Position numbers and translations under genes: made by a program. A DNA stretch of 64,000 bases from Alphaproteobacteria bacterium. Its GTDB lineage: Bacteria > Pseudomonadota > Alphaproteobacteria > CAAHEQ01 > UBA3637. The notes under the pieces were generated by a model, which searched no databases, was not told the DNA's origin, and saw only the letters and a program-made list of their open reading frames with translations. Location: positions 63,033-127,032 of the forward strand of contig JAZLCE010000027.1 of the NCBI GenBank assembly GCA_045614025.1, in the 5' to 3' direction. Below are positions 8,085 through 55,423 of this stretch, one piece after another; position 1 is the first letter of the stretch, and every line of letters begins with the position of its first letter.

Positions 8085-10724
8085 ATGGCAGAAGATAGGG
8101 AACAAAATCAAACAGAAACAAAACAAACTGCTAGGCCTGCATACGGGATAAACAGCGAAGGTGAATTACTTCAACAAATCGCTTCAGCCGATATTCAAAA
8201 AGACCTTGCTAAGAAAAAGAAAAAAAAGGTTGTTCATAAATCTTTATCCTCTTTTTCAATTGTTTTCGTTATGAGAACAACTCTTTTTATTGATTCTCTT
8301 AAAAGAAATCATAAAAATTTTTTCAGAATTTGTTCTTACTTGTGGGCGTTTTTCCTTTCGCTGATTTATGCGGGTGGAATTACTATGATCAGCACCATTC
8401 ACTATTCTAAAATCCACTTTCCAACAATTGTTTCAAATCATTTAAAAAGAAATGAAATTTCAGTTGAATCTCTTAAAGTTGTTGATAACTCCTTATCGCA
8501 TATTCAAATTGCAGGACTTGAGGATACTGAAAAAACATATCGTGTTTCATATGTAAACCTTTATTCAACATTTGGTGATTTTTTAAGAAAAAAAGTAGAA
8601 CGCGTTGAACTTGAAAACGTTGTTGTAAAAATCAAAGAATCACAAAACTCTGTAAATCTCAGTCCATTGCTTTCACTGATTTTAAATTTAAGCGAAAGAT
8701 CAAGAATTAACATTCAAACAGTTGTTATTAAAAGTGGTGTTCTTGAATTTGAAGGTGAAAATTACAAAATCCCTATCAACTTTTCAATGGATGCAACATT
8801 GCAAAACAATAACCGTATGGATATTCCATTACGCATCAAAGATGAAAATACCAACTTAATGGCCCATTTAACCATTTCAAAAAATGGTGAAGATTTCATT
8901 TGGTCTATTAAAAACTTGCGAGGCAGTACAGATATTTTAAGCAAAAAACCAGAAAACGTTTCTGGATCTATCACATTAAAAACAAAAGAACTTTCCCCAA
9001 CTGAATTAAATATTGAAACAAACTTTTCATTAGGGTCTTCCAAAAAAACTCTTTTTATCGATTTGAAAAAAAATGGTCGCCTTTTCGAAGGGATAACAAC
9101 CTATACAAAATCTCATACACAAGATGATAAAACACAAATTGATGCAGATATATCCTTTAACTTTAAAGGATTAGAAATAACATCTTTTTCTTCTTTTTCC
9201 ACAAAAAAACCTTTTTCAATTAATGTTGAAACTTTAACACAACCCTCGTTCGAGTTAAATAGCCTTAAAACAACAATTAATGGTGATTTAAATTGTCAAA
9301 GGCGAATTTGTCAAATTGATATAACTCAACCATCCTCTATTCGTATTAAAGAAATTTCTTATAAAGATGGTGTTAACTCATATTCAAATACAAATCCTTT
9401 ACTTTTCACATTGTTACCTCAAAAAAATACTATGAAACTTGCCAATAGTTTTGTTAATATGAATATTAAAGGTGAAGATTTAGAGTTTAAAGGGAAAAAA
9501 TCAATCACAAATACACCTATTGAATTAACAAGCAAAGAATTTATCATTGCAACTGATATATCAAAACCAGATCAACCAGCTTCTTTTTCTGGTAGAAACT
9601 TAAACTTCAAAAATAAATCTCATGAAATCAAAAATGCTGCTGTTTATGTAAAAGATATTTATAACACATCTAATCAATTTTCTTTGAGCACAGATTATAT
9701 TAAATTATTTGAAAACAGCGTCATCAAACAACCTTTTGCTTTAGATATCCAATCTGAAAATGGGGATACAAAAGCTAAAGCTATTTTTGCTGATGGGCAA
9801 ATTGAAACCCTCTTCAATGGCACGATCAATTTAAACTCTGGTCACTTTTCTGGAACTATTTACATGCCACCAGTTAATTTGGCACATATTAAAAATATTT
9901 CAGAAGTTTCAGATTTATTCCCCGAGAGATTAACAGATTTAACTGGTAAAATATCTTTATATGGGAATATTGACTGGAAAAATGAACGTCAAATTTCAGG
10001 ACCAATGTATCTTTCTCTTAAAAATATAAACTTTGCCAAGGGAGAAACAAAGATTAAAAATTTAAACTCGGTTTTAACTCTTCAATCTTTAGCTCCATTT
10101 GTTTCACAAGCAACCCAAAATTTAGCTATTGATGAAATTGAAGCAGCCATTCCTTTGCAAAATGTTCGAGCCTCTGTTAAATTTGAAAATCAATTATTAC
10201 GTATTTTCTCTTTAACAGGATCTTTTGCGGGAATCCCTTTGACGGCTGATCATACAACTATTCCATATAAATCTTATAGCTCTTTACTTTATTTTAGAAA
10301 TGGTTCTTTTGATTGGAAAGATATCAATCCTTATTTAAATGTTACAGATTTAACATTACAGGGAACAGGAAGTATTTATATCCCAATTGAAGCCACACCA
10401 ACAAGTACAAAAATTAACAATGCCGAAGCAAGATTAATTAATACAACTTTGCTTTATAATGGAGATAATGAAGAACTCAAGAAAAACTTCTTTACAAAAG
10501 GAAATGAATATTCTGTGCGTAGTGGAACCATTGTTTTAAACAGCAAAGAAAAAAATGTTTTAGATGCTTATATTAACTTTGAAGGGCGCGAAAAGAATGA
10601 AACAGAACGCTCTTTTTATAGAGCAGATAAAACTTTTAACTTCCAAGAATTGTTTAAACCAGAGGCCACAACACCTCTTCCTTCAAACATTTTAAAAATG
10701 CAAAAACAACTTTTTGGGAACTAA
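8085..10724 (+). CDS. Large membrane-anchored beta-rich protein, possibly AsmA-like (function uncertain)
   Basis: 879 aa. Poly-Lys stretch then one N-terminal TM helix (FFRICSYLWAFFLSLIYAGGITMI), followed by a long Asn/Ser/Thr-rich domain with alternating hydrophobics. Confidence 0.5.
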   Translation: MAEDREQNQTETKQTARPAYGINSEGELLQQIASADIQKDLAKKKKKKVVHKSLSSFSIVFVMRTTLFIDSLKRNHKNFFRICSYLWAFFLSLIYAGGITMISTIHYSKIHFPTIVSNHLKRNEISVESLKVVDNSLSHIQIAGLEDTEKTYRVSYVNLYSTFGDFLRKKVERVELENVVVKIKESQNSVNLSPLLSLILNLSERSRINIQTVVIKSGVLEFEGENYKIPINFSMDATLQNNNRMDIPLRIKDENTNLMAHLTISKNGEDFIWSIKNLRGSTDILSKKPENVSGSITLKTKELSPTELNIETNFSLGSSKKTLFIDLKKNGRLFEGITTYTKSHTQDDKTQIDADISFNFKGLEITSFSSFSTKKPFSINVETLTQPSFELNSLKTTINGDLNCQRRICQIDITQPSSIRIKEISYKDGVNSYSNTNPLLFTLLPQKNTMKLANSFVNMNIKGEDLEFKGKKSITNTPIELTSKEFIIATDISKPDQPASFSGRNLNFKNKSHEIKNAAVYVKDIYNTSNQFSLSTDYIKLFENSVIKQPFALDIQSENGDTKAKAIFADGQIETLFNGTINLNSGHFSGTIYMPPVNLAHIKNISEVSDLFPERLTDLTGKISLYGNIDWKNERQISGPMYLSLKNINFAKGETKIKNLNSVLTLQSLAPFVSQATQNLAIDEIEAAIPLQNVRASVKFENQLLRIFSLTGSFAGIPLTADHTTIPYKSYSSLLYFRNGSFDWKDINPYLNVTDLTLQGTGSIYIPIEATPTSTKINNAEARLINTTLLYNGDNEELKKNFFTKGNEYSVRSGTIVLNSKEKNVLDAYINFEGREKNETERSFYRADKTFNFQELFKPEATTPLPSNILKMQKQLFGN

Positions 10725-14851: not shown

Positions 14852-15805
14852 ATGACAAAAACCGTTTGGATACTTGCTGACGATAGAACTGGAAATGTTA
14901 ATCAACTTTTAGGCATTGCAGAACGCCTTCCCTTCCCTTTTGAACGAAAAGAAATTCGTTATAATTCATGGATTAAATTACCAAATTTTTTAAGAGGGAA
15001 AAGCTTGATTGGATTAACGAGTGAAAGCAAAAAAAATCTATCAACAGCTTCATATCCAGATCTTGTTTTAAGTGCAGGAAGAAGATCATACCCTGCCGCT
15101 TTATGGATCAAAAAGAAATCAAAAGGTAAAACTAAAATTATTCAATTAATGAATCCTGGAAAAGCATATTTTAAACAAGCAGATTTAGTTATTTTGCCTG
15201 AACATGATTTATATAAGGGATATTCCAAAAATGTTTTAATCTCAACAGGAACACCACACAGAATAACTCCTGAGCGATTAAAACAAGAAAAAGAAAAATG
15301 GGCTTCTCAATTTAAAAAATATTCCTCTCCACGACTTTCATTAATTGTTGGGGGGGCAACAAAAAATAATCCATTTACATTAGAAATGGCTCATGATTTA
15401 CTTAAAAATGTTAATGCACTTAAACCAAAAAGCGTTTTAGTTACAACCTCTAGACGAACACCAAAAGAAATTGTTTCCTATCTCAAAAAAAATCTTGATA
15501 AAAAAACAACTTTCTTTTATCAATTTGGAGATAAAATTGAAAATCCTTATTTTGGGCTCCTTTCTTCAGCAGATATAATTCTTGTTACAGGGGATTCAAT
15601 GTCTATGTGTTCTGAATGCTGTGCAACGAATGTTCCTGTTTTTATTTTTGCGCCAGATTTAATGATGAGCGAAAAACACAAACGTTTTCACAAAAGCCTT
15701 TTTAAAAATGGATATGCCCTTCCAGCTGGATCAAAGCTTAAACCCACAAAAGGGAATTTCAATCCTGCTGGAAATATTATTCATCAGATTCTAAAATTAT
15801 TTTAA
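14852..15805 (+). CDS. ELM1/DUF1022-family protein (glycosyltransferase-like, mitochondrial-fission ELM1 homologue)
   Basis: 317 aa. The N-terminus VWILADDRTGNVNQLLGIAERL resembles alphaproteobacterial DUF1022 proteins. Confidence 0.45.
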   Translation: MTKTVWILADDRTGNVNQLLGIAERLPFPFERKEIRYNSWIKLPNFLRGKSLIGLTSESKKNLSTASYPDLVLSAGRRSYPAALWIKKKSKGKTKIIQLMNPGKAYFKQADLVILPEHDLYKGYSKNVLISTGTPHRITPERLKQEKEKWASQFKKYSSPRLSLIVGGATKNNPFTLEMAHDLLKNVNALKPKSVLVTTSRRTPKEIVSYLKKNLDKKTTFFYQFGDKIENPYFGLLSSADIILVTGDSMSMCSECCATNVPVFIFAPDLMMSEKHKRFHKSLFKNGYALPAGSKLKPTKGNFNPAGNIIHQILKLF

Positions 15806-42633: not shown

Positions 42634-43884
42634 ATGCTATTTTCAAAAAAACCACCTATGCCAACAAACTTTAAATTAGGGACTCAGGAAAAAACCTTAA
42701 ATCAACCTTTTGAAAATGAACCTAAAATTCAACAACCAAAACCGTCTTTTCAAATGCCTGAACCTCCTGCATTTAAAGAGCCAATGTTTATGCCTCAAGC
42801 ACCTAAATTTTCTCAAGATAATTCATCTTCTCAATCTTTTACCCCCCCCATTGAAACAACGGTTATTAAAGAAGAAACAACCCCTCACGAAGAAATAAAT
42901 GAAAATGGGCAAAAAGTTTTTAAAGCAAAATCCATTAAAGATGTTGATTTTTCAGACATTTGGTTCACGCCTGAAAAAATTGCTTATATCCGAGATAAAA
43001 ACACAAAATTTGCCCTCATTCCATTTGAAACAGAAGATTTAGATGATTTCTTAAAAATTTTGGAACAAGGGTATCAAGGATCCGCAAGCTATGCCATTCG
43101 TTTTTTAAATGAAGCATATCGTGTTGAACGCGTTATCACTTCAACAGGAACTCAATATAATTGCCGTAAAATGCCGGCCACAACACCAAGTATCTATAAA
43201 TTAGGATTACCTGAGCCAATTGTAAAATATATGACTTCTTTAGCAACCGAATCAGGTCTTATTTTACTTGCAGGACCAACTGGTATGGGGAAAACAACAA
43301 CAGTTTCAGCTTTAGTTAAAGAGTTTTTGGAAACACATGGTGGCTTTTTATACACCATTGAAGATCCACCTGAAATGCCTCTTGATGGTCTTTATCATGC
43401 AAGAAATGGAGGCCTAGGGTTATGCAAACAAAGCTCTGTTGAAAATGAAAGATGGGGAGATGCATTAAAATCAGCTCTACGTTCACGTCCAAGATATATC
43501 CTTGTTGGGGAAATCAGAACGCCTGAAGTTGCCTCTCAAGCTTTACGGGCCGCTACATCTGGTCACCTTGTTCTTTCAACCATTCATGCCAATAGTGTTG
43601 AAGATGCATTAAATTCCGTTATTAAATATGCTTCTGGCGCCGGGTTGGATGAAAAACTTGTTTGTGACTTATTAGCACGCGGGATTTTAGGTGTTGTACA
43701 TCAACAATTAGAAGGAACAACAAATTTAAGACCCATTATTCATACAGCATTTGCAAATCCAAATCCTTTAGTTGCTTGCCAAATGCGAATGACTATCAGA
43801 GAAGGAAAAATCTCACTCGCTACATTTATGGAAGCCCAAAATACAAGAATATTTCAAGGGCGACCAATGTTTAGAGAACTATAA
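42634..43884 (+). CDS. PilT/VirB11-class secretion ATPase (orphan) with a proline-rich N-terminal extension
   Basis: Walker A GPTGMGKTT, Asp box EDPPE, Walker B RYILVGEIRTPE, His box GHLVLSTIHA. The first ~90 aa are Pro/Gln-rich and low complexity. Confidence 0.75.
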   Translation: MLFSKKPPMPTNFKLGTQEKTLNQPFENEPKIQQPKPSFQMPEPPAFKEPMFMPQAPKFSQDNSSSQSFTPPIETTVIKEETTPHEEINENGQKVFKAKSIKDVDFSDIWFTPEKIAYIRDKNTKFALIPFETEDLDDFLKILEQGYQGSASYAIRFLNEAYRVERVITSTGTQYNCRKMPATTPSIYKLGLPEPIVKYMTSLATESGLILLAGPTGMGKTTTVSALVKEFLETHGGFLYTIEDPPEMPLDGLYHARNGGLGLCKQSSVENERWGDALKSALRSRPRYILVGEIRTPEVASQALRAATSGHLVLSTIHANSVEDALNSVIKYASGAGLDEKLVCDLLARGILGVVHQQLEGTTNLRPIIHTAFANPNPLVACQMRMTIREGKISLATFMEAQNTRIFQGRPMFREL

Positions 43885-45423: not shown

Positions 45424-45497
45424 TGGAGCGGGTGAAGGGAATCGAACCCTCGTAATCAGCTTGGAAGGCTGGAGCTTTACCATTAAGCTACACCCGC
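45424..45497 (-). tRNA. tRNA-Gly (anticodon UCC)
   Basis: Cloverleaf folded by hand: acceptor GCGGGTG/CACCCGC, anticodon loop CUUCCAA, T-loop TTCGATT, 74 nt. Confidence 0.85.
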
Positions 45498-45516
45498 GCA
45501 TCAGTCGGGTTCGTCC

Positions 45517-45602
45517 TGGTGGAAGGGGAAAGATTCGAACTTTCGTAGACATAAGTCGGCAGATTTACAGTCTGCTGCCATTAACCACTCGGCCACCCTT
45601 CC
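45517..45602 (-). tRNA. tRNA-Tyr (anticodon GUA), type II with long variable arm
   Basis: Acceptor GGAAGGG/CCCTTCC, anticodon stem GCAGA/TCTGC, loop CUGUAAA, 14-nt variable arm, T-loop TTCGAAT, 86 nt. Confidence 0.85.
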
Positions 45603-49623: not shown

Positions 49624-49644
49624 TCCGTTTAACTTAAAAAGAAA

Positions 49645-49680
49645 AACCCATCTGTTTTCAGATGGGTTTTCTTTTGGTTT
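49645..49680. terminator. Bidirectional terminator between serS and the convergent CC-repeat operon
   Basis: 10-bp stem AACCCATCTG/CAGATGGGTT with loop TTTT, and T-runs on both strands. Confidence 0.6.
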
Positions 49681-49738: not shown

Positions 49739-51208
49739 TTATCGTCCACCTAACGGACCAGCATATCCCTTATCTCCTTCTTCTGGTAGGCCATCAGCAA
49801 CACAAGCACCATTAATTTTTTTGCCCCATGTGATGCAACAAAATGAATTATACATCCATTTACCACCAGCATTTTCGCAACAAGCTGCTGTTCTTGAACC
49901 AGTCATAATATCCATTGATCCTCTACAGCAAGAAGCGCTCGATTCTTCTTGATCTGGATCGCCAGGAGCACTACTGCTACTAGTAACCCATTCACCATAT
50001 GCATGTTCGCAACAAGCTTGAGTTGGTTTACCCTTTATATTTCTCGGAGAAGTTGGGTCTTCGCAACATTCCCCTTCACCACCATTACCGCCATCTGCAT
50101 AATTAGAGCTTGGGCAACAACCATAATAATCTCCATCAGGATACTCTTTATCATCACTGTTTTGACAGCAAGCCCCACCTATAGCAAACTTTCCAGTTTC
50201 ACAACAATCCGTATCGCCATAATTGCCGTTTTGTGGATTCACAAATTTTTTAATATAAACATTACCCTTACAACAAGCCCCTGATTTTAATTCAGAACCA
50301 TCGTCCAGCGTTACTTTTTTCACATAACCATCTTCATCTGATGCACAACAAGCATCAATATCTCCGAGATCTGATACTACTTTAGGGCTTTTACAGCAAT
50401 CTTCTATCACATCTGTTTCACTTGAATCATTATAGGCGCGCCCATAAACAGTTCCTCCTATACAACAACCAAGATCGGCCACCCCTGAATCAAAAGCTTT
50501 GTTATAGGCGTTTCCTCCATCCCCTACGCAACAATTAGAGGTTACTTTTGCGCCTGAATAAGTGATTACAACTTTACCATCTAGAGTCATCGATTGATAC
50601 ATTTGATTTGCCATTGCCGTGCCATCTTTTTCGGTTGCACAGCAATCGCCATTTTCCCATTTACCCTCTGCCGCCTTGCAACATTCCTTTGAATGGGCTT
50701 TTTTATCAAAATCATAAGCTTGAAAGCAACAGCGGTCTGAGTGTTCTTCCCCACCTTGCGCCCGGCAACATCTGGCATTATTCGACCCAGTTGACCAATA
50801 TTTCCAACTATCTGCAATGCAACAAATTCCACCGTTTCCTGGCATATTTTGAGTATCTGCAGCTCCTTCTAATGGCCAAAAGACATAGTTCCCAGGATCC
50901 TTTCCTTTTGCTATTTGACTTGTGCAACAATCTTCTGTTACAACTCCACCGCGAATTGGAATACCCTCTGGAGATAAAGCATATGCCGCGGTAACATTAT
51001 TGATTGAACAACAAGTGCCTCCACGCCATTCAAAGTTTTCTTCATTTCCCCAACCACCTTTGCAACAATCTTCAGAGGTTGAAATTTTAGACATGTAACA
51101 ACAATTTGGATTTAATACGGCTCCACCTCCACCTGACTGAGACATTACTTCGGTTGAAATCACCAAGGCGCCACTCAAAGATAAAATCATTCCCCATTTT
51201 TTCATCAT
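49739..51208 (-). CDS. Secreted vicinal-cysteine (CC-doublet) repeat protein B. Novel; no family recognised.
   Basis: Start trimmed to the ATG at 51208 (MMKKWGMILSLSGALVISTEVMS signal peptide, preceded by a G8 RBS-like tract). The mature ~465 aa contain about 22 Cys-Cys doublets spaced 8-35 residues apart and one single Cys. Gly/Asp/Asn-rich. Confidence 0.7.
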   Translation of the reverse strand: MMKKWGMILSLSGALVISTEVMSQSGGGGAVLNPNCCYMSKISTSEDCCKGGWGNEENFEWRGGTCCSINNVTAAYALSPEGIPIRGGVVTEDCCTSQIAKGKDPGNYVFWPLEGAADTQNMPGNGGICCIADSWKYWSTGSNNARCCRAQGGEEHSDRCCFQAYDFDKKAHSKECCKAAEGKWENGDCCATEKDGTAMANQMYQSMTLDGKVVITYSGAKVTSNCCVGDGGNAYNKAFDSGVADLGCCIGGTVYGRAYNDSSETDVIEDCCKSPKVVSDLGDIDACCASDEDGYVKKVTLDDGSELKSGACCKGNVYIKKFVNPQNGNYGDTDCCETGKFAIGGACCQNSDDKEYPDGDYYGCCPSSNYADGGNGGEGECCEDPTSPRNIKGKPTQACCEHAYGEWVTSSSSAPGDPDQEESSASCCRGSMDIMTGSRTAACCENAGGKWMYNSFCCITWGKKINGACVADGLPEEGDKGYAGPLGGR

Positions 51209-51214
51209 TTTTAT

Positions 51215-51222
51215 CCCCCCCC
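51215..51222 (-). repeat. Homopolymeric G8 tract (C8 on + strand) in the ribosome-binding spacer of CC-repeat gene B
   Basis: Read directly. It lies 6 nt upstream of the ATG at 51208 and 2 nt downstream of the stop of the preceding gene. Unusual in this AT-rich genome. Confidence 0.85.
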
Positions 51223-51224
51223 TT

Positions 51225-52484
51225 TTAATTGCGCTCTCTGGATGCGCTTTGATTCCGGCGTGTATTTCGCGCATTTCTTGAACTTGTTGTTCTTGTTCTA
51301 GATGAAGATCGGGATGATGCTCTGGAAGAGGATCTTGAAGAAGACCTGCCATCATATAATCCCCTAATAGGAACAACATCATAAACATGGTTCACCCCTT
51401 CTTCAATCTCATACGTATTAAAAGAGTTTACAACATATGTGTGCTTTACCAATTCTTCAACATACCGATTTGCTTTTTGATAGGTAAGGCAAAGCGCTCT
51501 GGTTAAGGGGGTTTTATTCATTGAAAGTGAGCGAACATTTCCACCTTTTTGTTGAATAATTTGTTCTAGCCCATCCATCATTTCCCTTAAAGCGGCTGGA
51601 GCATTCAATAATTGAGCTGCGCGAGCTGATAAGGATGGATTAATATCCTCTGGACTTGGTTGATTAAAAAAGGTGAGACTTATTGTACGATTATTGGCAA
51701 AAGATGTCGTAACAATTCCTTTACCTCCACAATCAGAACCAATGCCTAAAATTCCTGTTTCTAATAAACCTTCATAAGAATAAAGTGGATGCCCCAAAGT
51801 GCGATAAAGCGAAGCTTGTTGCTCTGTATAATTGGATAAATCCAATGCATCCGTATGTTGTCCAAAAAGAATCCATTTTGTTGGTATAAATTTACCCATT
51901 AATTGAGCTGGGTCCACCTCAGGATCGCGCCCCAAATCAACCAATTGCATGCCATAAAAATAATGAAAGTTTTCATTTAAAATAGCAAGAACATCTTTTA
52001 AAAATTCTTGATCAGGTTCATCCATCACTTTATTTCCGCGGTTCACTGCTCTTAATTCAGAAGCCGATAATTCAATCCATGGCCGATCCGTTTGCGGGTT
52101 AATGGCGGGTTCTTTTCGATATTCCCATGCTTGATCATCCCCAAAAAAGCGCGTGCGATATAAAAAGATATGCCCCCCTTTTTCATAAAGACCAATGCCA
52201 TCTTCATCATTCACATAAAGCAAGCTTTCGCCTGACATCAAATATCGATAATTGTTTCTATTTTGCTCTATCCATTCTTTAAAAACAGGATGAAGGGTGG
52301 CATAGTTATCGGCTTCTCGATAAAGCCTATAAATCGAAGTAGGGTTTTTGCGTTTGGATCCAAACCTTCCACTTGAAACGCGTTCACTTGGCGTATATTC
52401 GCAAGCAAGCAAATCCCTTGATTCCAAGGTGGAAGCGCAAACGCCCCACATAACCGATAATAACAATAAGTCTTTATATCTCAT
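51225..52484 (-). CDS. Secreted protein with a C-terminal Arg/Ser-rich (RS-repeat) tail. Unknown function.
   Basis: Signal peptide MRYKDLLLLSVMWGVCAST. The last ~40 aa read GRSSSRSSSRASSRSSSRTRTTSSRNARNTRRNQSASRERN. No recognised catalytic motifs. Confidence 0.65.
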   Translation of the reverse strand: MRYKDLLLLSVMWGVCASTLESRDLLACEYTPSERVSSGRFGSKRKNPTSIYRLYREADNYATLHPVFKEWIEQNRNNYRYLMSGESLLYVNDEDGIGLYEKGGHIFLYRTRFFGDDQAWEYRKEPAINPQTDRPWIELSASELRAVNRGNKVMDEPDQEFLKDVLAILNENFHYFYGMQLVDLGRDPEVDPAQLMGKFIPTKWILFGQHTDALDLSNYTEQQASLYRTLGHPLYSYEGLLETGILGIGSDCGGKGIVTTSFANNRTISLTFFNQPSPEDINPSLSARAAQLLNAPAALREMMDGLEQIIQQKGGNVRSLSMNKTPLTRALCLTYQKANRYVEELVKHTYVVNSFNTYEIEEGVNHVYDVVPIRGLYDGRSSSRSSSRASSRSSSRTRTTSSRNARNTRRNQSASRERN

Positions 52485-52517
52485 TTATCCTCACTTTCAC
52501 TTTGCTTTTTTAAGCAA

Positions 52518-55337
52518 TTATCCATTCCCCCCAACAACGCCTTCTTCAGGACAGGAGCCAACATATGTGCCATAACCATTTTCAACACCTGGAGGACAAT
52601 CATATGTTCTTAGCGTTTTTCTTCGCTCAACTTCAACAATGCCACCAGGTTTTGAGCTTCCAGGAATATGCGTATATTTAAAGCATTCTTTTGCTGGCTT
52701 ATTTTTCAAACCTCTGGGTATGAAGCAATCATCCCCATAAGCAAGCCCACTTGGATTACTTGGACAACAAGCACAAGATATTGTTCCATTAGCCAAAACA
52801 CCTTCCTCTTGACAGCAATTTCCATTAATCTCTTTACATACTGTGGTATCACATTCCATTTCTTGCGTGTCTGGAATCACTTCTTCTTCTGTCTTAATTG
52901 TATCTATATACGTGCAATAATCATAGCATTTATCTGGGTTTGGTTGGGGCCCCTCTGTGCACTTTTTACAACTTGTGCATTTTGAACCATCCCAATATAT
53001 GCCTTTTCCACCAGCTTGCATGGATGCATAATCACAACAAATTTTACTTTCCGTTCCATCAATAGCTTGCCCCGTTTTTAAATCACAACACATACTTTCA
53101 GTTGTGTTATATGAGATACCCGTTGGATAACAAGTTGTTCCAGAGGTCCCAGTTGGGCACTGACCCGCCTGAGCATACCCTTGAATCGTTGTTCCCACCA
53201 AAACAAACGTTCCTTTGGAGCGAATAAGTGGATTTGTTGTATTATAATAAAGAGGAGATTCGCAACATTCTTTATAATTATTTTTCACATCACCTTCTGT
53301 TGCGCTCATAGAAGTACCCTCTAATGTTTGGCAACAATATTCTGGCGAAGGCATCCCGCTCCAATCTCTAATCTTTTGATCATAAGTTAACGCAGTTCCA
53401 GAACGTTCAAGCTCTTTATAATCCACACAACAGTTGCGATCTGGCTCTGGAACACTGGTAGGCGCAGTCGCAATAATTCCACATTCTTGTGAAATATTTT
53501 GTCCAACTTGATAATGTGGGCCATGAACATAAGAAAGTTTTCGTCCATTCATATCCGTTGCCACATTACAGCATTCTTGAGAATATTTAAGCACACCACC
53601 TTCATAAGCACAAGCAGATGTTTTTAAACGTTTTTGAAGCCCTTCCATTTTATAACAGCAATCTGTTGTTGGCGTTCCCATAATATCCAATGGAGCAGCC
53701 CCTGTAATCGGCGTTCCCAATGTTGGAACATTAGAAACACCTTCCCATGGACATTGCTCAGTTGTTGAAGCCGTGCGAAACGCCAGCACATCATTTTGCG
53801 AACAACAAAGCGCTTTTCCAGTTTCTGATGTAAGATTTGTACCAGCAACTTGGCCATCGGCTTCTGCCCAATATCCTCCTCCTGCAATGCAACACTGATC
53901 GACCGTTACTTCACTTGTTTGAGATGAACTTCCCAATGGACAGTTTTGATATTGGGTGGATGTTGATCCTTTTGATGTAGCAATTGTCCACGGCAATACT
54001 GCCCCCGTGATGGATGAAATGTGACATGGCACGGTAATAGATGTTGTAGGAGGTTCACCCGGGCAACAAGATGCATCCATCTCACCAGCCCAGTTGCCGC
54101 CAATATAAATCTCTTCTTCCGAAGTGATAGCGTCCGTATCAAAAACCCACGTTTCTTCATAAACCGGTATTCCATTTTCATCTACAACTGGTTTACCTGT
54201 GGCATCTGTTTTAGCAGTGATACGAACAGAATAACGCCCATCTGGGCCCACTTTACAACGAGGTGTATTTTCAATATTTTCAACCAGTTTACAACATTTT
54301 GGCCCCCCTGGAATGAAAACAACATCATCACCCAACAATTCACAACATTCTTGCGATTCAATGTGTCCACCACTTTCTTCAGTATATGGCGTACCAGGAA
54401 CACAAGTCATATCCGGTGTTGGCAGTAAATCAATCCCTTGTTTTTGACCGAAATAAAGAACCAATGTTTGAAGTGGAATCATTTTCTTTGATCCATCCTC
54501 ATTTTTTTCACCCGTATCTACCCTTGCCCCATAGGCCATACAAGCCAAACTTTTTTTATTTTCGCAAACAGAACCTGCCCCTGGAGCGGTTTCTGGATTA
54601 TCTTCATCTTCAAGATTTCTGAGATATTTTTGCGCTAAAGAAATATTTCCTTTAGTTGGGTCAATCATGGTGCAAACTTTATCAATTTGTTCTTTTGTTG
54701 CAATGCCTTCTTCCCCACCCCGTTCTGGGTTTGCATATTTATTTTCTTTTGAAATATTCAAAAAGTCTGGCGTAAAAGGATCCATCGGCGATCCACTCTG
54801 ACTTTGAAGCGCAACATATGCATAATCAAAACCTAAATCGCTTTTGTATAATAACTTTTCACATAACGTATAGGAAAGCCCTGTAACACGAACAGTCCAG
54901 TTATTTTCATCTTCAGCACGAACCCAAGCTGGTGCATCAAGCAAGGTATCAAACGATTCATGTTCGCGCACCTCAACCATCTTGGATCTATCGCCACCAA
55001 CAAGCTTGCCCTCTTCGTCAATTAACCCAGCATCAAAGGCCGATTCTTCCGAACGATACCGCACCCTTGAAACAACATCTCTGATTGGAATAATATATGG
55101 AACATAGTCATCAGCAATACCAACTGTTTGAAATCCATAATGAAGAGGAATATCCCATGAACGACCACCTGCAACTAAAACACTAAGCTGATCCAATGTT
55201 TCAGCTTCTTGATATAAACGCATTGCGTAGCCATAACCAACAATTCCACCAATTGATAAAACCCCCGCCAAGGCCAAAACGCCAAGCATTTCAGCCATTG
55301 TTCGTCCGTTCTCCATCCCAATTTTTTCTTTTTGCAT
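52518..55337 (-). CDS. Large membrane-anchored/secreted Cys-rich protein A with CC doublets and a pilin-like N-terminus. Novel.
   Basis: ATG at 55337 with AGGGGA RBS is preferred over the upstream TTG at 55364. N-terminus MQKEKIGMENG/RTMAEMLGVLALAGVLSIGGIVGY has a Gly before a hydrophobic helix and Glu at +5. The ~900-aa Gly/Thr/Ser-rich body has 14 or more CC doublets plus about 30 single Cys. Confidence 0.65.
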   Translation of the reverse strand: MQKEKIGMENGRTMAEMLGVLALAGVLSIGGIVGYGYAMRLYQEAETLDQLSVLVAGGRSWDIPLHYGFQTVGIADDYVPYIIPIRDVVSRVRYRSEESAFDAGLIDEEGKLVGGDRSKMVEVREHESFDTLLDAPAWVRAEDENNWTVRVTGLSYTLCEKLLYKSDLGFDYAYVALQSQSGSPMDPFTPDFLNISKENKYANPERGGEEGIATKEQIDKVCTMIDPTKGNISLAQKYLRNLEDEDNPETAPGAGSVCENKKSLACMAYGARVDTGEKNEDGSKKMIPLQTLVLYFGQKQGIDLLPTPDMTCVPGTPYTEESGGHIESQECCELLGDDVVFIPGGPKCCKLVENIENTPRCKVGPDGRYSVRITAKTDATGKPVVDENGIPVYEETWVFDTDAITSEEEIYIGGNWAGEMDASCCPGEPPTTSITVPCHISSITGAVLPWTIATSKGSTSTQYQNCPLGSSSQTSEVTVDQCCIAGGGYWAEADGQVAGTNLTSETGKALCCSQNDVLAFRTASTTEQCPWEGVSNVPTLGTPITGAAPLDIMGTPTTDCCYKMEGLQKRLKTSACAYEGGVLKYSQECCNVATDMNGRKLSYVHGPHYQVGQNISQECGIIATAPTSVPEPDRNCCVDYKELERSGTALTYDQKIRDWSGMPSPEYCCQTLEGTSMSATEGDVKNNYKECCESPLYYNTTNPLIRSKGTFVLVGTTIQGYAQAGQCPTGTSGTTCYPTGISYNTTESMCCDLKTGQAIDGTESKICCDYASMQAGGKGIYWDGSKCTSCKKCTEGPQPNPDKCYDYCTYIDTIKTEEEVIPDTQEMECDTTVCKEINGNCCQEEGVLANGTISCACCPSNPSGLAYGDDCFIPRGLKNKPAKECFKYTHIPGSSKPGGIVEVERRKTLRTYDCPPGVENGYGTYVGSCPEEGVVGGNG

Positions 55338-55394
55338 CGGACATCCCCTTTTTTCATATGTCAAAAAGAAGGGTTAACAACCCCGTATACTTTC

Positions 55395-55423
55395 AGAATA
55401 CCAAAAAATACGCATATCGTCAA
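55395..55423 (-). promoter_or_regulatory. Candidate sigma70 promoter of the CC-repeat operon (TTGACG-17-TATTCT on minus strand)
   Basis: -35 at 55423-55418 and -10 at 55400-55395 (minus strand), giving a leader of about 50 nt to the ATG at 55337. Confidence 0.4.

Follow-up and report, generated by a model that had tools for sequence, protein, structure and literature searches.

The window analysed here, the whole stretch of 64,000 nucleotides (nt) taken from contig JAZLCE010000027.1 of an uncultured Alphaproteobacteria bacterium, carries on its minus strand a cassette of three genes, called A (52518–55337, 939 amino acids (aa), read from MQKEK to the stop codon), B (51225–52484, 419 aa) and C (49739–51208, 489 aa, from the MMKKWG start). 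Their products are very probably a type IVb-like pilin of modular build and two exported partner proteins. The product of gene A has the sequence of a giant modular pilin, in which a type IVb pilin module of ~300 residues is followed by a novel, acidic and Cys-rich module of ~630 residues. That of gene C appears as a Sec-exported protein of galaxin-like di-cysteine architecture, a resemblance compatible with homology as well as with convergence, and the B protein begins with a signal peptide for export. To the overall model, in which the cassette provides a type IVb-like pilus system with its accessory end, exposed at the surface, we give about even chances. The original prediction, made from the DNA alone, had described an operon for secreted proteins built from vicinal Cys-Cys (CC) doublets with no other recognisable domain; this last statement has to be abandoned, since a type IVb pilin module is found at the N-terminus of gene A.

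The class III (prepilin-type) signal and the α1-N helix of gene A occupy 55203–55337 (minus strand) and read MQKEKIGMENG/RTMAEMLGVLALAGVLSIGGIVGYGYAM, the slash marking the putative cleavage site; positions −1, +1 and +5 are Gly, Arg and Glu, respectively. Within it, MENG/RTMAEMLGVLALAGVLSIGGIVGY combines Gly −1 and Glu +5 with a hydrophobic α1-N stretch of ~20 residues, the features of a class III signal. An alignment of 11 full-length gene A orthologs (A2) gives the conserved N-terminus as MENG/RTMAEMLGVLALAGVLSIGGIVGYGYAMRLYQEAETLDQ, with G11, R12, M14, E16, M17 and L18 invariant, and the segment aligns in register with the cleavage site of Geobacter PilA.

Patterns back-translated from this N-terminus (a segment of 60 aa) matched 599 stretches in the GTDB representative genomes. 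The 524 confirmed relatives belong almost all to metagenome-assembled genomes (MAGs) of Alphaproteobacteria, often with more than 10 per genome. Most of the 136 related open reading frames (ORFs) that were extracted are 180–260 aa long and begin ...GRSMIEMLGVLAIIGVLSVGGIAGYSKAM. An alignment of 21 of these small paralogs (A3) matches the structure of the bundlin BfpA (1zwt, E 7.6e-13), and further those of TcpA, the CFA/III pilin (CofA) and Geobacter PilA. Members of A3 score above the cut-offs of Pfam Bundlin (PF05307, 17/21) and PilS (PF08805, 18/21), while N_methyl (PF07963) matches 20/21 below threshold and a single member passes TIGR02532 (16.6 bits, cut-off 16.3). We are thus dealing with a large type IVb pilin family, marked by an invariant GRSMIEML and Arg at +1, which standard pilin-motif models score at or below their thresholds. 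The small pilins of 180–260 aa from L006 to L080 (e.g. L027, L009, L011 and L039) display the near-invariant N-terminus GRSMIEMLGVLAIIGVLSVGGIAGY, again with Arg at +1.

When A2 was compared with A3 by hhalign, the two aligned over residues 5–164 with 99.5% probability (E 2.5e-22), and C159 of gene A, in GLSYTLCEKLL, fell on the invariant pilin Cys of A3 assigned to the D-region disulfide. The homology of residues 5–164, together with the Cys-rich remainder, argues for a modular pilin and also implies that the leader of gene A is of the prepilin type (class III) and not a Sec signal. The signal peptides that had been proposed for both CC-rich proteins are therefore retained for gene C, where the signal is of Sec type, and replaced by a prepilin leader for gene A. 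In the small pilins of A3, both Cys from which a D-region disulfide is expected to form are invariant, which suggests that this lineage can make structural disulfides.

Conservation along the protein is highest in the pilin module, which extends from residue 1 to ~310 (54408–55337, minus strand), and lowest in the last ~200 residues. The Cys-rich C-terminal module (residues 311–939, 52521–54407, minus strand) contains 49 Cys and 14 CC doublets, has an isoelectric point (pI) of 4.55 and finds no sequence match in Pfam, NCBIfam or PDB; identity profiles place a hypervariable distal end at residues ~731–939 (52521–53147, minus strand). Other large modular pilins, of 460–511 aa, occur on the plus strand in rabbit-gut MAGs (L017:10754, L044:335 and L061:1516), with the same N-terminus and a different module, whose 34–36 Cys are arranged in spaced repeats of the CxxC type, CC doublets being nearly absent. 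Among GTDB representative genomes, the closest has a gene A relative of 324 aa (L005:574-1548) that ends right after the pilin module and has Asp in place of the +5 Glu (GRSMADTL). This could be a copy that is truncated or in decay, or else an artefact of assembly.

The CC doublets number 14 in gene A, none in gene B and 22 in gene C, in agreement with the counts first given and far above those of 2000 shuffles with unchanged composition (means of 2.8 for A and 3.4 for C, maximum 9). Their description as exclusively vicinal pairs applies to gene C, with 44 of its 45 Cys in doublets, but not to gene A, where 28 of the 53 Cys of the 939-aa protein are so arranged and 25 are single. Across nine members of the C family, down to 36% identity, 41 of the 45 Cys are invariant versus 12% of the other residues, and in the whole gene A protein the corresponding values are 36 of 53 and 12%. 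Invariance at such divergence indicates that the doublets are a selected feature. Mis-framed translation, already thought unlikely in the original prediction, can be ruled out because the CC positions are kept across orthologs. Of 9 gene C orthologs, 8 have an odd number of Cys (45 or 51); so do 10 of the 11 gene A orthologs (51, 53 or 55), in which the counts always change by two. This parity would leave one unpaired Cys per protein, if all the others pair within the molecule.

Gene C starts with a Sec-type signal peptide (51140–51208, minus strand; MMKKWGMILSLSGALVISTEVMS/QS), recognised from its sequence and conserved in the orthologs, and continues with a short Gly-rich N-terminus, the 22 CC doublets and one single Cys. 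Between doublets there are 10–35 residues (median 16); the single Cys lies 10 residues after the last doublet and none precedes the first. The mature protein has a pI of 4.5 and a Cys content of 9.7%. These properties recall the galaxins, proteins of pI 4.5 in which a signal peptide precedes repeats of ~30 aa, each with two di-Cys motifs (PMC2726143), and more generally galaxins and calcarins, in which 10–23 di-Cys motifs ~10–15 residues apart are bordered by a single Cys at each end (PMC12419799). For these proteins, AlphaFold predicts that each Cys of a doublet is bonded to a neighbouring hairpin, resulting in a continuous disulfide backbone (PMC12419799). Gene C shares with them the signal peptide, an almost wholly di-Cys protein whose 22 motifs compare with 10–23, a repeat unit of ~30 aa with two motifs, the acidic pI of ~4.5 and a terminal single Cys placed about one inter-doublet distance after the last doublet. 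Its AlphaFold2 model, of low confidence, alternates a short CC-helix with a CC-hairpin in units of ~30–35 aa, and the predicted structure would likewise be a disulfide ladder joining small hairpins.

Gene C departs from galaxins and calcarins in its wider and irregular doublet spacing and in the missing upstream single Cys, which accounts for its odd Cys count. It also obtains 17.8–18.2 bits on Pfam Galaxin_repeat (PF24748), below the 28-bit gathering cut-off, and, unlike galaxins, is found in a bacterial host, linked to a pilin gene and not involved in biomineralisation. Other members of the family score higher on this model, P0073 at 25.2 bits and P0074, the gene C equivalent in another triad, at 57 bits, which passes the threshold. 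The view that this architecture has no known counterpart should thus be narrowed: a di-Cys repeat class has been described (galaxins and calcarins; PF24748, PTHR34490; PMC2726143, PMC12419799), although, in the literature consulted, only outside bacteria, PTHR34490 members being reported from animals, other eukaryotes and archaea (PMC12419799). Our search of the literature for bacterial galaxin-like proteins returned only coral papers. On the analogy with these proteins, the balance tilts somewhat towards a disulfide ladder in the CC proteins. If the ladder holds, bacteria too would make use of a fold class so far considered chiefly in connection with animal biomineralisation proteins, and the cassette would provide a compact system to study correct oxidation of vicinal Cys, probably in the periplasm of an anaerobe.

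The doublets could instead serve as ligands or redox centres, making the proteins an extracytoplasmic thiol or metal sink (Zn, Cu, Fe-S, heavy metals) or a vicinal-disulfide redox sensor. The high Cys content of mature C would suit such a function, as would the odd Cys counts, which leave at least one free thiol, and the anaerobic ribonucleotide reductase encoded in a related MAG (L027), a hint of an anaerobic habitat that could allow thiols to remain reduced. However, the doublets are 12–37 residues apart and separated by predicted strands and helices as well as by conserved Trp, Tyr and Gly, unlike the tight CxC/CxxC clusters of metallothioneins, and no metallothionein or metal-binding family was matched in Pfam or NCBIfam. 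The fusion to a pilin and the fast evolution of non-Cys residues fit better a scaffold presenting variable loops, and galaxin-type proteins are predicted to form disulfide ladders (PMC12419799). We consider a sink or sensor very unlikely.

The three genes travel together. The A-B-C triad is located between rsmE and serS in the window, in L001–L004 and in L087, and adjoins ftsH in L088, whereas in L083 an A-like pilin of 891 aa is directly followed by a 369-aa protein with 12 CC doublets, without gene B. The operon-like organisation first proposed is therefore borne out by the relatives, in which the triad recurs beside serS and ftsH; with the L083 pair, the cassette is found in three genomic contexts. 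This pair without B, and the B-like genes without A or C in L081 and L085, indicate that A and C are the linked core.

The cassette evolves much faster than its surroundings. Among relatives, the A, B and C proteins are 31–69% identical versus 77–100% for the flanks (97–100% for SerS). Compared with L001, SerS is 100% identical, the other flanking proteins 91–98% and A, B and C 68–69%; compared with L087, SerS is 97% identical and gene C 31%. At the nucleotide level the identity to L001 is mosaic, with 92–97% in the flanks, 91–96% in the middle of A and 56–68% in distal A, a profile that points to recombination. In the closest relative the distal end of gene A is 40–57% identical, versus 65–100% for the other regions, and within gene C the first ~90 mature residues are the most variable. 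With its conserved flanks, hypervariable mosaic interior and invariant Cys, the cassette is likely a major variable surface determinant of the lineage, which may matter for colonisation, phage or immune recognition and strain typing. A shufflon or silent cassettes were also considered and rejected, as the window contains no significant direct or inverted repeats besides one 52-nt repeat inside gene C. This sole notable DNA repeat of the cassette is present in two copies (49856–49907 and 49988–50039), 71% identical, which encode the CCENAGGKW and CCEHAYGEW units.

Hypervariable, mosaic and recombination-like exposed parts would also be expected from an arms race, in which the cassette would be a module for contact-dependent or secreted antagonism, or for effects on a host, without a link to adhesion, with C as a disulfide-stabilised toxin or antimicrobial, B as a processing or immunity factor and A as the delivery subunit. 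The triad does move as a unit between genomic contexts, and type IVb pili are known exporters of exoproteins (PMC10120004). We nevertheless give this little credit: general Pfam and NCBIfam scans, made with no dedicated defence-system search, matched none of the families of toxins, immunity proteins, peptidases or defence proteins, the size, acidity and repetitive sequence of C are not those of a compact toxin, and the signal peptide of B is not that of a cytoplasmic immunity protein.

Two sets of precedents support the pilus model. Modular type IV pilins have been described, such as Streptococcus sanguinis PilB and PilC, which carry a von Willebrand factor A (vWA) and a lectin module, respectively, and many others bear modules not yet defined in databases (PMC8179133). 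Gene A is comparable to PilB and PilC in having a class III signal and a small pilin module onto which a bulky module is grafted, with an expected location at the tip. It differs from them in that IPR012902-type models do not recognise it, and its 630-aa di-cysteine-rich domain is not among the architectures described in the text of that article (PMC8179133). The second precedent is given by minor pilins and their secreted partners. The Sec-exported CofJ binds the distal domain of the minor pilin CofB via its N-terminal segment (PMC6048534), and TcpF binds the minor pilin TcpB by a disordered N-terminal export signal (PMC10120004). There, as here, a large pilin made of a pilin module and extra C-terminal domains is co-encoded with a Sec-exported protein, within the type IVb class. 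The parts that determine specificity in CofB-CofJ and TcpB-TcpF, the exoprotein N-terminal segment and the pilin distal domain, correspond to the most variable parts of C and A. The cassette is distinguished from them by the additional gene B, by the CC-rich modules and by the size of A, about twice that of CofB or TcpB.

According to the model we propose, gene A would be processed by a prepilin peptidase and inserted into a pilus, most likely at the tip given the bulk of its 928 mature residues, so that the acidic 630-residue module would be displayed outward. Gene C would be exported by Sec to the periplasm and fold into ~11 units of two CC doublets each, in which, by analogy with galaxins and calcarins, the Cys of a doublet would each be bonded to a different neighbouring doublet, giving a stiff and protease-resistant rod. 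C, and possibly B, would then act as partner exoprotein, binding the distal part of A and being carried out or held at the tip. The exposed ends would diversify by mutation and recombination under pressure from the host, phages or competitors; hypervariability is seen both distally in A and at the N-terminus of C, and the two genes co-occur in the three contexts. To this tip-adhesin and exoprotein mechanism, built on analogy, we assign a little less than an even chance. Among the roles first envisaged, which included a disulfide cross-linked envelope or appendage, the appendage version stays the best reading.

The conserved unpaired Cys of A and of C could form an intermolecular bond. A and C might then constitute a covalently joined pilus-tip rod, a galaxin-like hairpin ladder carried by a type IVb pilin and extended by the secreted ladder C, although we think this improbable. 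If true, this rod would be held together by disulfides and proof against proteases, recombination would exchange its exposed ends, and bacteria would be seen for the first time to use a di-Cys ladder fold, by convergence or ancient transfer, and to join a pilin covalently to an exoprotein. Modular pilins and di-Cys repeat proteins are already known separately. We found no literature description of a di-Cys-rich module on a pilin, of a bacterial di-Cys ladder family, of their genetic pairing or of a conserved odd Cys parity. Modular pilins explain how simple filaments gain functions, and here a very large undescribed module rich in Cys pairs comes with a dedicated secreted partner that has this architecture as well.

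Several observations weigh against the pilus model. The +1 residue of type IV pilins is usually hydrophobic (Phe, Met, Leu or Val) and N-methylated, whereas here it is an invariant Arg, which the gene A orthologs share with 21 of 21 paralogs. Alone, gene A gives no Pfam or NCBIfam pilin match at E ≤ 1, including N_methyl and TIGR02532. The AlphaFold2 models are weak, with a predicted local distance difference test score (pLDDT) of 47 for A, where residues 1–94 are below 50, and of 60 for C, so that neither the pilin fold nor the disulfide ladder is seen directly; a fold search with the gene A model was dropped because a pLDDT of 47 was too poor. The CC regions of A and C have no detectable homology to each other, and the possibility that they are paralogs was discarded, since hhalign aligned the two families with a probability of 4.6%. 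No sequence similarity exists between the cassette proteins and CofB, TcpB, CofJ or TcpF. Moreover, the cassette sits between rsmE and serS or beside ftsH, outside any pilus operon, unlike cof and tcp, and the 64-kb window contains no gene for a major pilin, prepilin peptidase, secretin or platform protein. The gut is largely anoxic. Finally, the model does not account for the role of gene B, which is absent from the L083 pair and present without A or C in L081.

Another possibility is that gene A is not assembled and its pilin-like helix is an inner-membrane anchor, or that of a short endopilus subunit as in type II secretion, the three proteins forming a disulfide-rich cross-linked layer in the periplasm or envelope, with a loose parallel in the Cys-rich envelope proteins of chlamydiae. 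The location among housekeeping genes, with no pilus machinery in the window, agrees with this proposal, and so do the +1 Arg, atypical for prepilin peptidase substrates, the failure of gene A on N_methyl and TIGR02532, and the Asp that replaces +5 Glu in the L005 copy truncated after the pilin module. Yet Gly −1 and Glu +5 are invariant in the 11 full-length orthologs, and hundreds of small, bona fide type IVb pilins, likewise scattered among housekeeping genes, have the GRSMIEML N-terminus, so that genomic isolation is normal for the pilin genes of this group. In L006 and L027, the small pilin genes lie among SecY, CysS, NrdD and FtsK genes and not in pilus operons, and no pilus machinery was found beside them in these two annotated MAG loci. 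Diversification of the distal end also fits surface exposure better than a periplasmic scaffold. Chlamydial OmcA and OmcB are Cys-rich, as are metallothioneins, and OmcB is exported and disulfide cross-linked in the envelope, but these proteins use CxC/CxxC patterns where the cassette proteins have spaced doublets. The absence of any relationship to them, suspected in the original prediction, is supported by the lack of Pfam or NCBIfam matches at E ≤ 1. Overall, we hold an envelope layer to be unlikely and favour the assembled pilin.

An orphan ATPase of the secretion superfamily (Pfam T2SSE) is encoded at 42634–43884 on the plus strand, between rimP and tuf. Its best NCBIfam match is the PilT/PilU family (123 bits against a 319-bit cut-off), and this divergent PilT-like protein is the only candidate for pilus-related machinery in the window.

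Gene B finds no significant or credible match in Pfam, NCBIfam or PDB by sequence and profile searches, and exact-sequence look-ups of gene B and of the P0001 protein returned no record. Its family conserves the motifs KEPAINPxTxRPWIEL and ILNENFHYFYGM. The protein ends with a basic (pI 12), Ser/Arg-rich disordered tail (residues 378–419, 51228–51353, minus strand), whose basic character is kept across the family while its sequence is not; the Ser/Arg repeats of this tail, RSSSRSSSRASSRSSSRTRTTSSR..., are unusual for an exported bacterial protein. In the more distant lineage L081, a gene B homolog of 447 aa (L081:3477-6064, 40% identity), without A or C, follows a gene for a 405-aa protein in which a region rich in Lys, Ala and Glu resembles, by eye, a coiled coil. 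The B-like gene of L085 also has neither A nor C in its vicinity, but on its upstream side 116 nt separate it from the end of the contig.

The families are rare. In a word-indexed search of 5.8 billion proteins, the families of genes C, A and B comprised 11, 12 and 49 sequence clusters, respectively, and an exhaustive HMMER search of 1.84 billion representatives with the gene C family profile gave 10 proteins at E ≤ 0.001, in line with the singularity noted at the outset. Six profile matches were retrieved, all CC-rich except P0079 (E 1.6e-4), a Cys-free repeat protein and probably a spurious match. At NCBI these proteins are hypothetical proteins from 'Alphaproteobacteria bacterium' MAGs. The MAGs with related pilin genes are Alphaproteobacteria, mostly from gut or rumen samples (human gut, rumen, rabbit and similar); we found nothing in the literature on pilins in gut RF32 Alphaproteobacteria. 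Nothing supports the intracellular lifestyle once envisaged, the related MAGs being mostly of gut or rumen origin and one of them encoding the anaerobic ribonucleotide reductase mentioned above.

The higher GC content of the region, noticed by eye in the original prediction, is real (0.39–0.42 for the cassette genes versus 0.34 ± 0.035 for 42 other genes), but its interpretation as foreign DNA does not stand. The excess resides at codon position 2 (GC2, 0.42–0.52 versus 0.345 ± 0.046) and thus reflects amino-acid composition (Gly, Cys, Ala, Ser, Thr), while at codon position 3 it is slight (GC3, 0.255–0.29 versus 0.21 ± 0.03) and within the range of EF-Tu and SerS. On these grounds, and given the conserved synteny among relatives, a foreign origin was rejected. 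A phage origin was likewise discarded, no gene C relatives being found among the viral contigs of IMG/VR.

The three same-direction ORFs on the minus strand have raw extents of 52518–55364, 51225–52484 and 49739–51388, and their position between rsmE (PUA_4/Methyltrans_RNA) and serS, as originally proposed, agrees with the Pfam annotation of the flanks in syntenic loci. Ortholog alignments and a Shine-Dalgarno sequence upstream of each place the true starts of A and C at nt 55337 and 51208, that of A being kept in 11 orthologs. The gaps, first estimated at 20–35 nt, are indeed short and with the revised starts become 33 nt (A-B) and 16 nt (B-C). The gene C protein at NCBI has 511 aa and begins at MREIHAG, 22 codons 5' of the MMKKWG start common to all orthologs; this start is probably mis-annotated. 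The extension (51209–51274, minus strand) overlaps the end of gene B.

Upstream of gene A, a consensus scan recovers the promoter-like element of the original prediction at 55395–55423 (minus strand; TTGACG, 17 nt, TATTCT, with a TG extension), but the region contains 22 such matches versus 15.7 ± 4.5 in shuffles, not clearly above chance, and by itself the element is weak evidence for a promoter. Downstream of this element, and still ahead of the gene A start codon, the presumed 5' leader contains a small GC-rich hairpin (GGGTTAACAACCC) at 55370–55384. The bidirectional intrinsic terminator could be located at 49642–49671, where a hairpin of 12–13 pairs with T runs on both strands is common to gene C and the convergent serS.

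Elsewhere, the window carries ordinary chromosomal genes of housekeeping type (PEPCK, RecN-like, LigA, PlsX, FabH, RuvC, LepA, GroEL, PNPase, IF2, NusA and EF-Tu). It also encodes, on the plus strand, a large YdbH-like intermembrane lipid-transport protein (8085–10724), consistent with a diderm envelope, and a homolog of the Mito_fiss_Elm1 family (14852–15805, E 1e-73). Two tRNA genes are located directly upstream of tuf (EF-Tu), at 45427–45602 on the minus strand.

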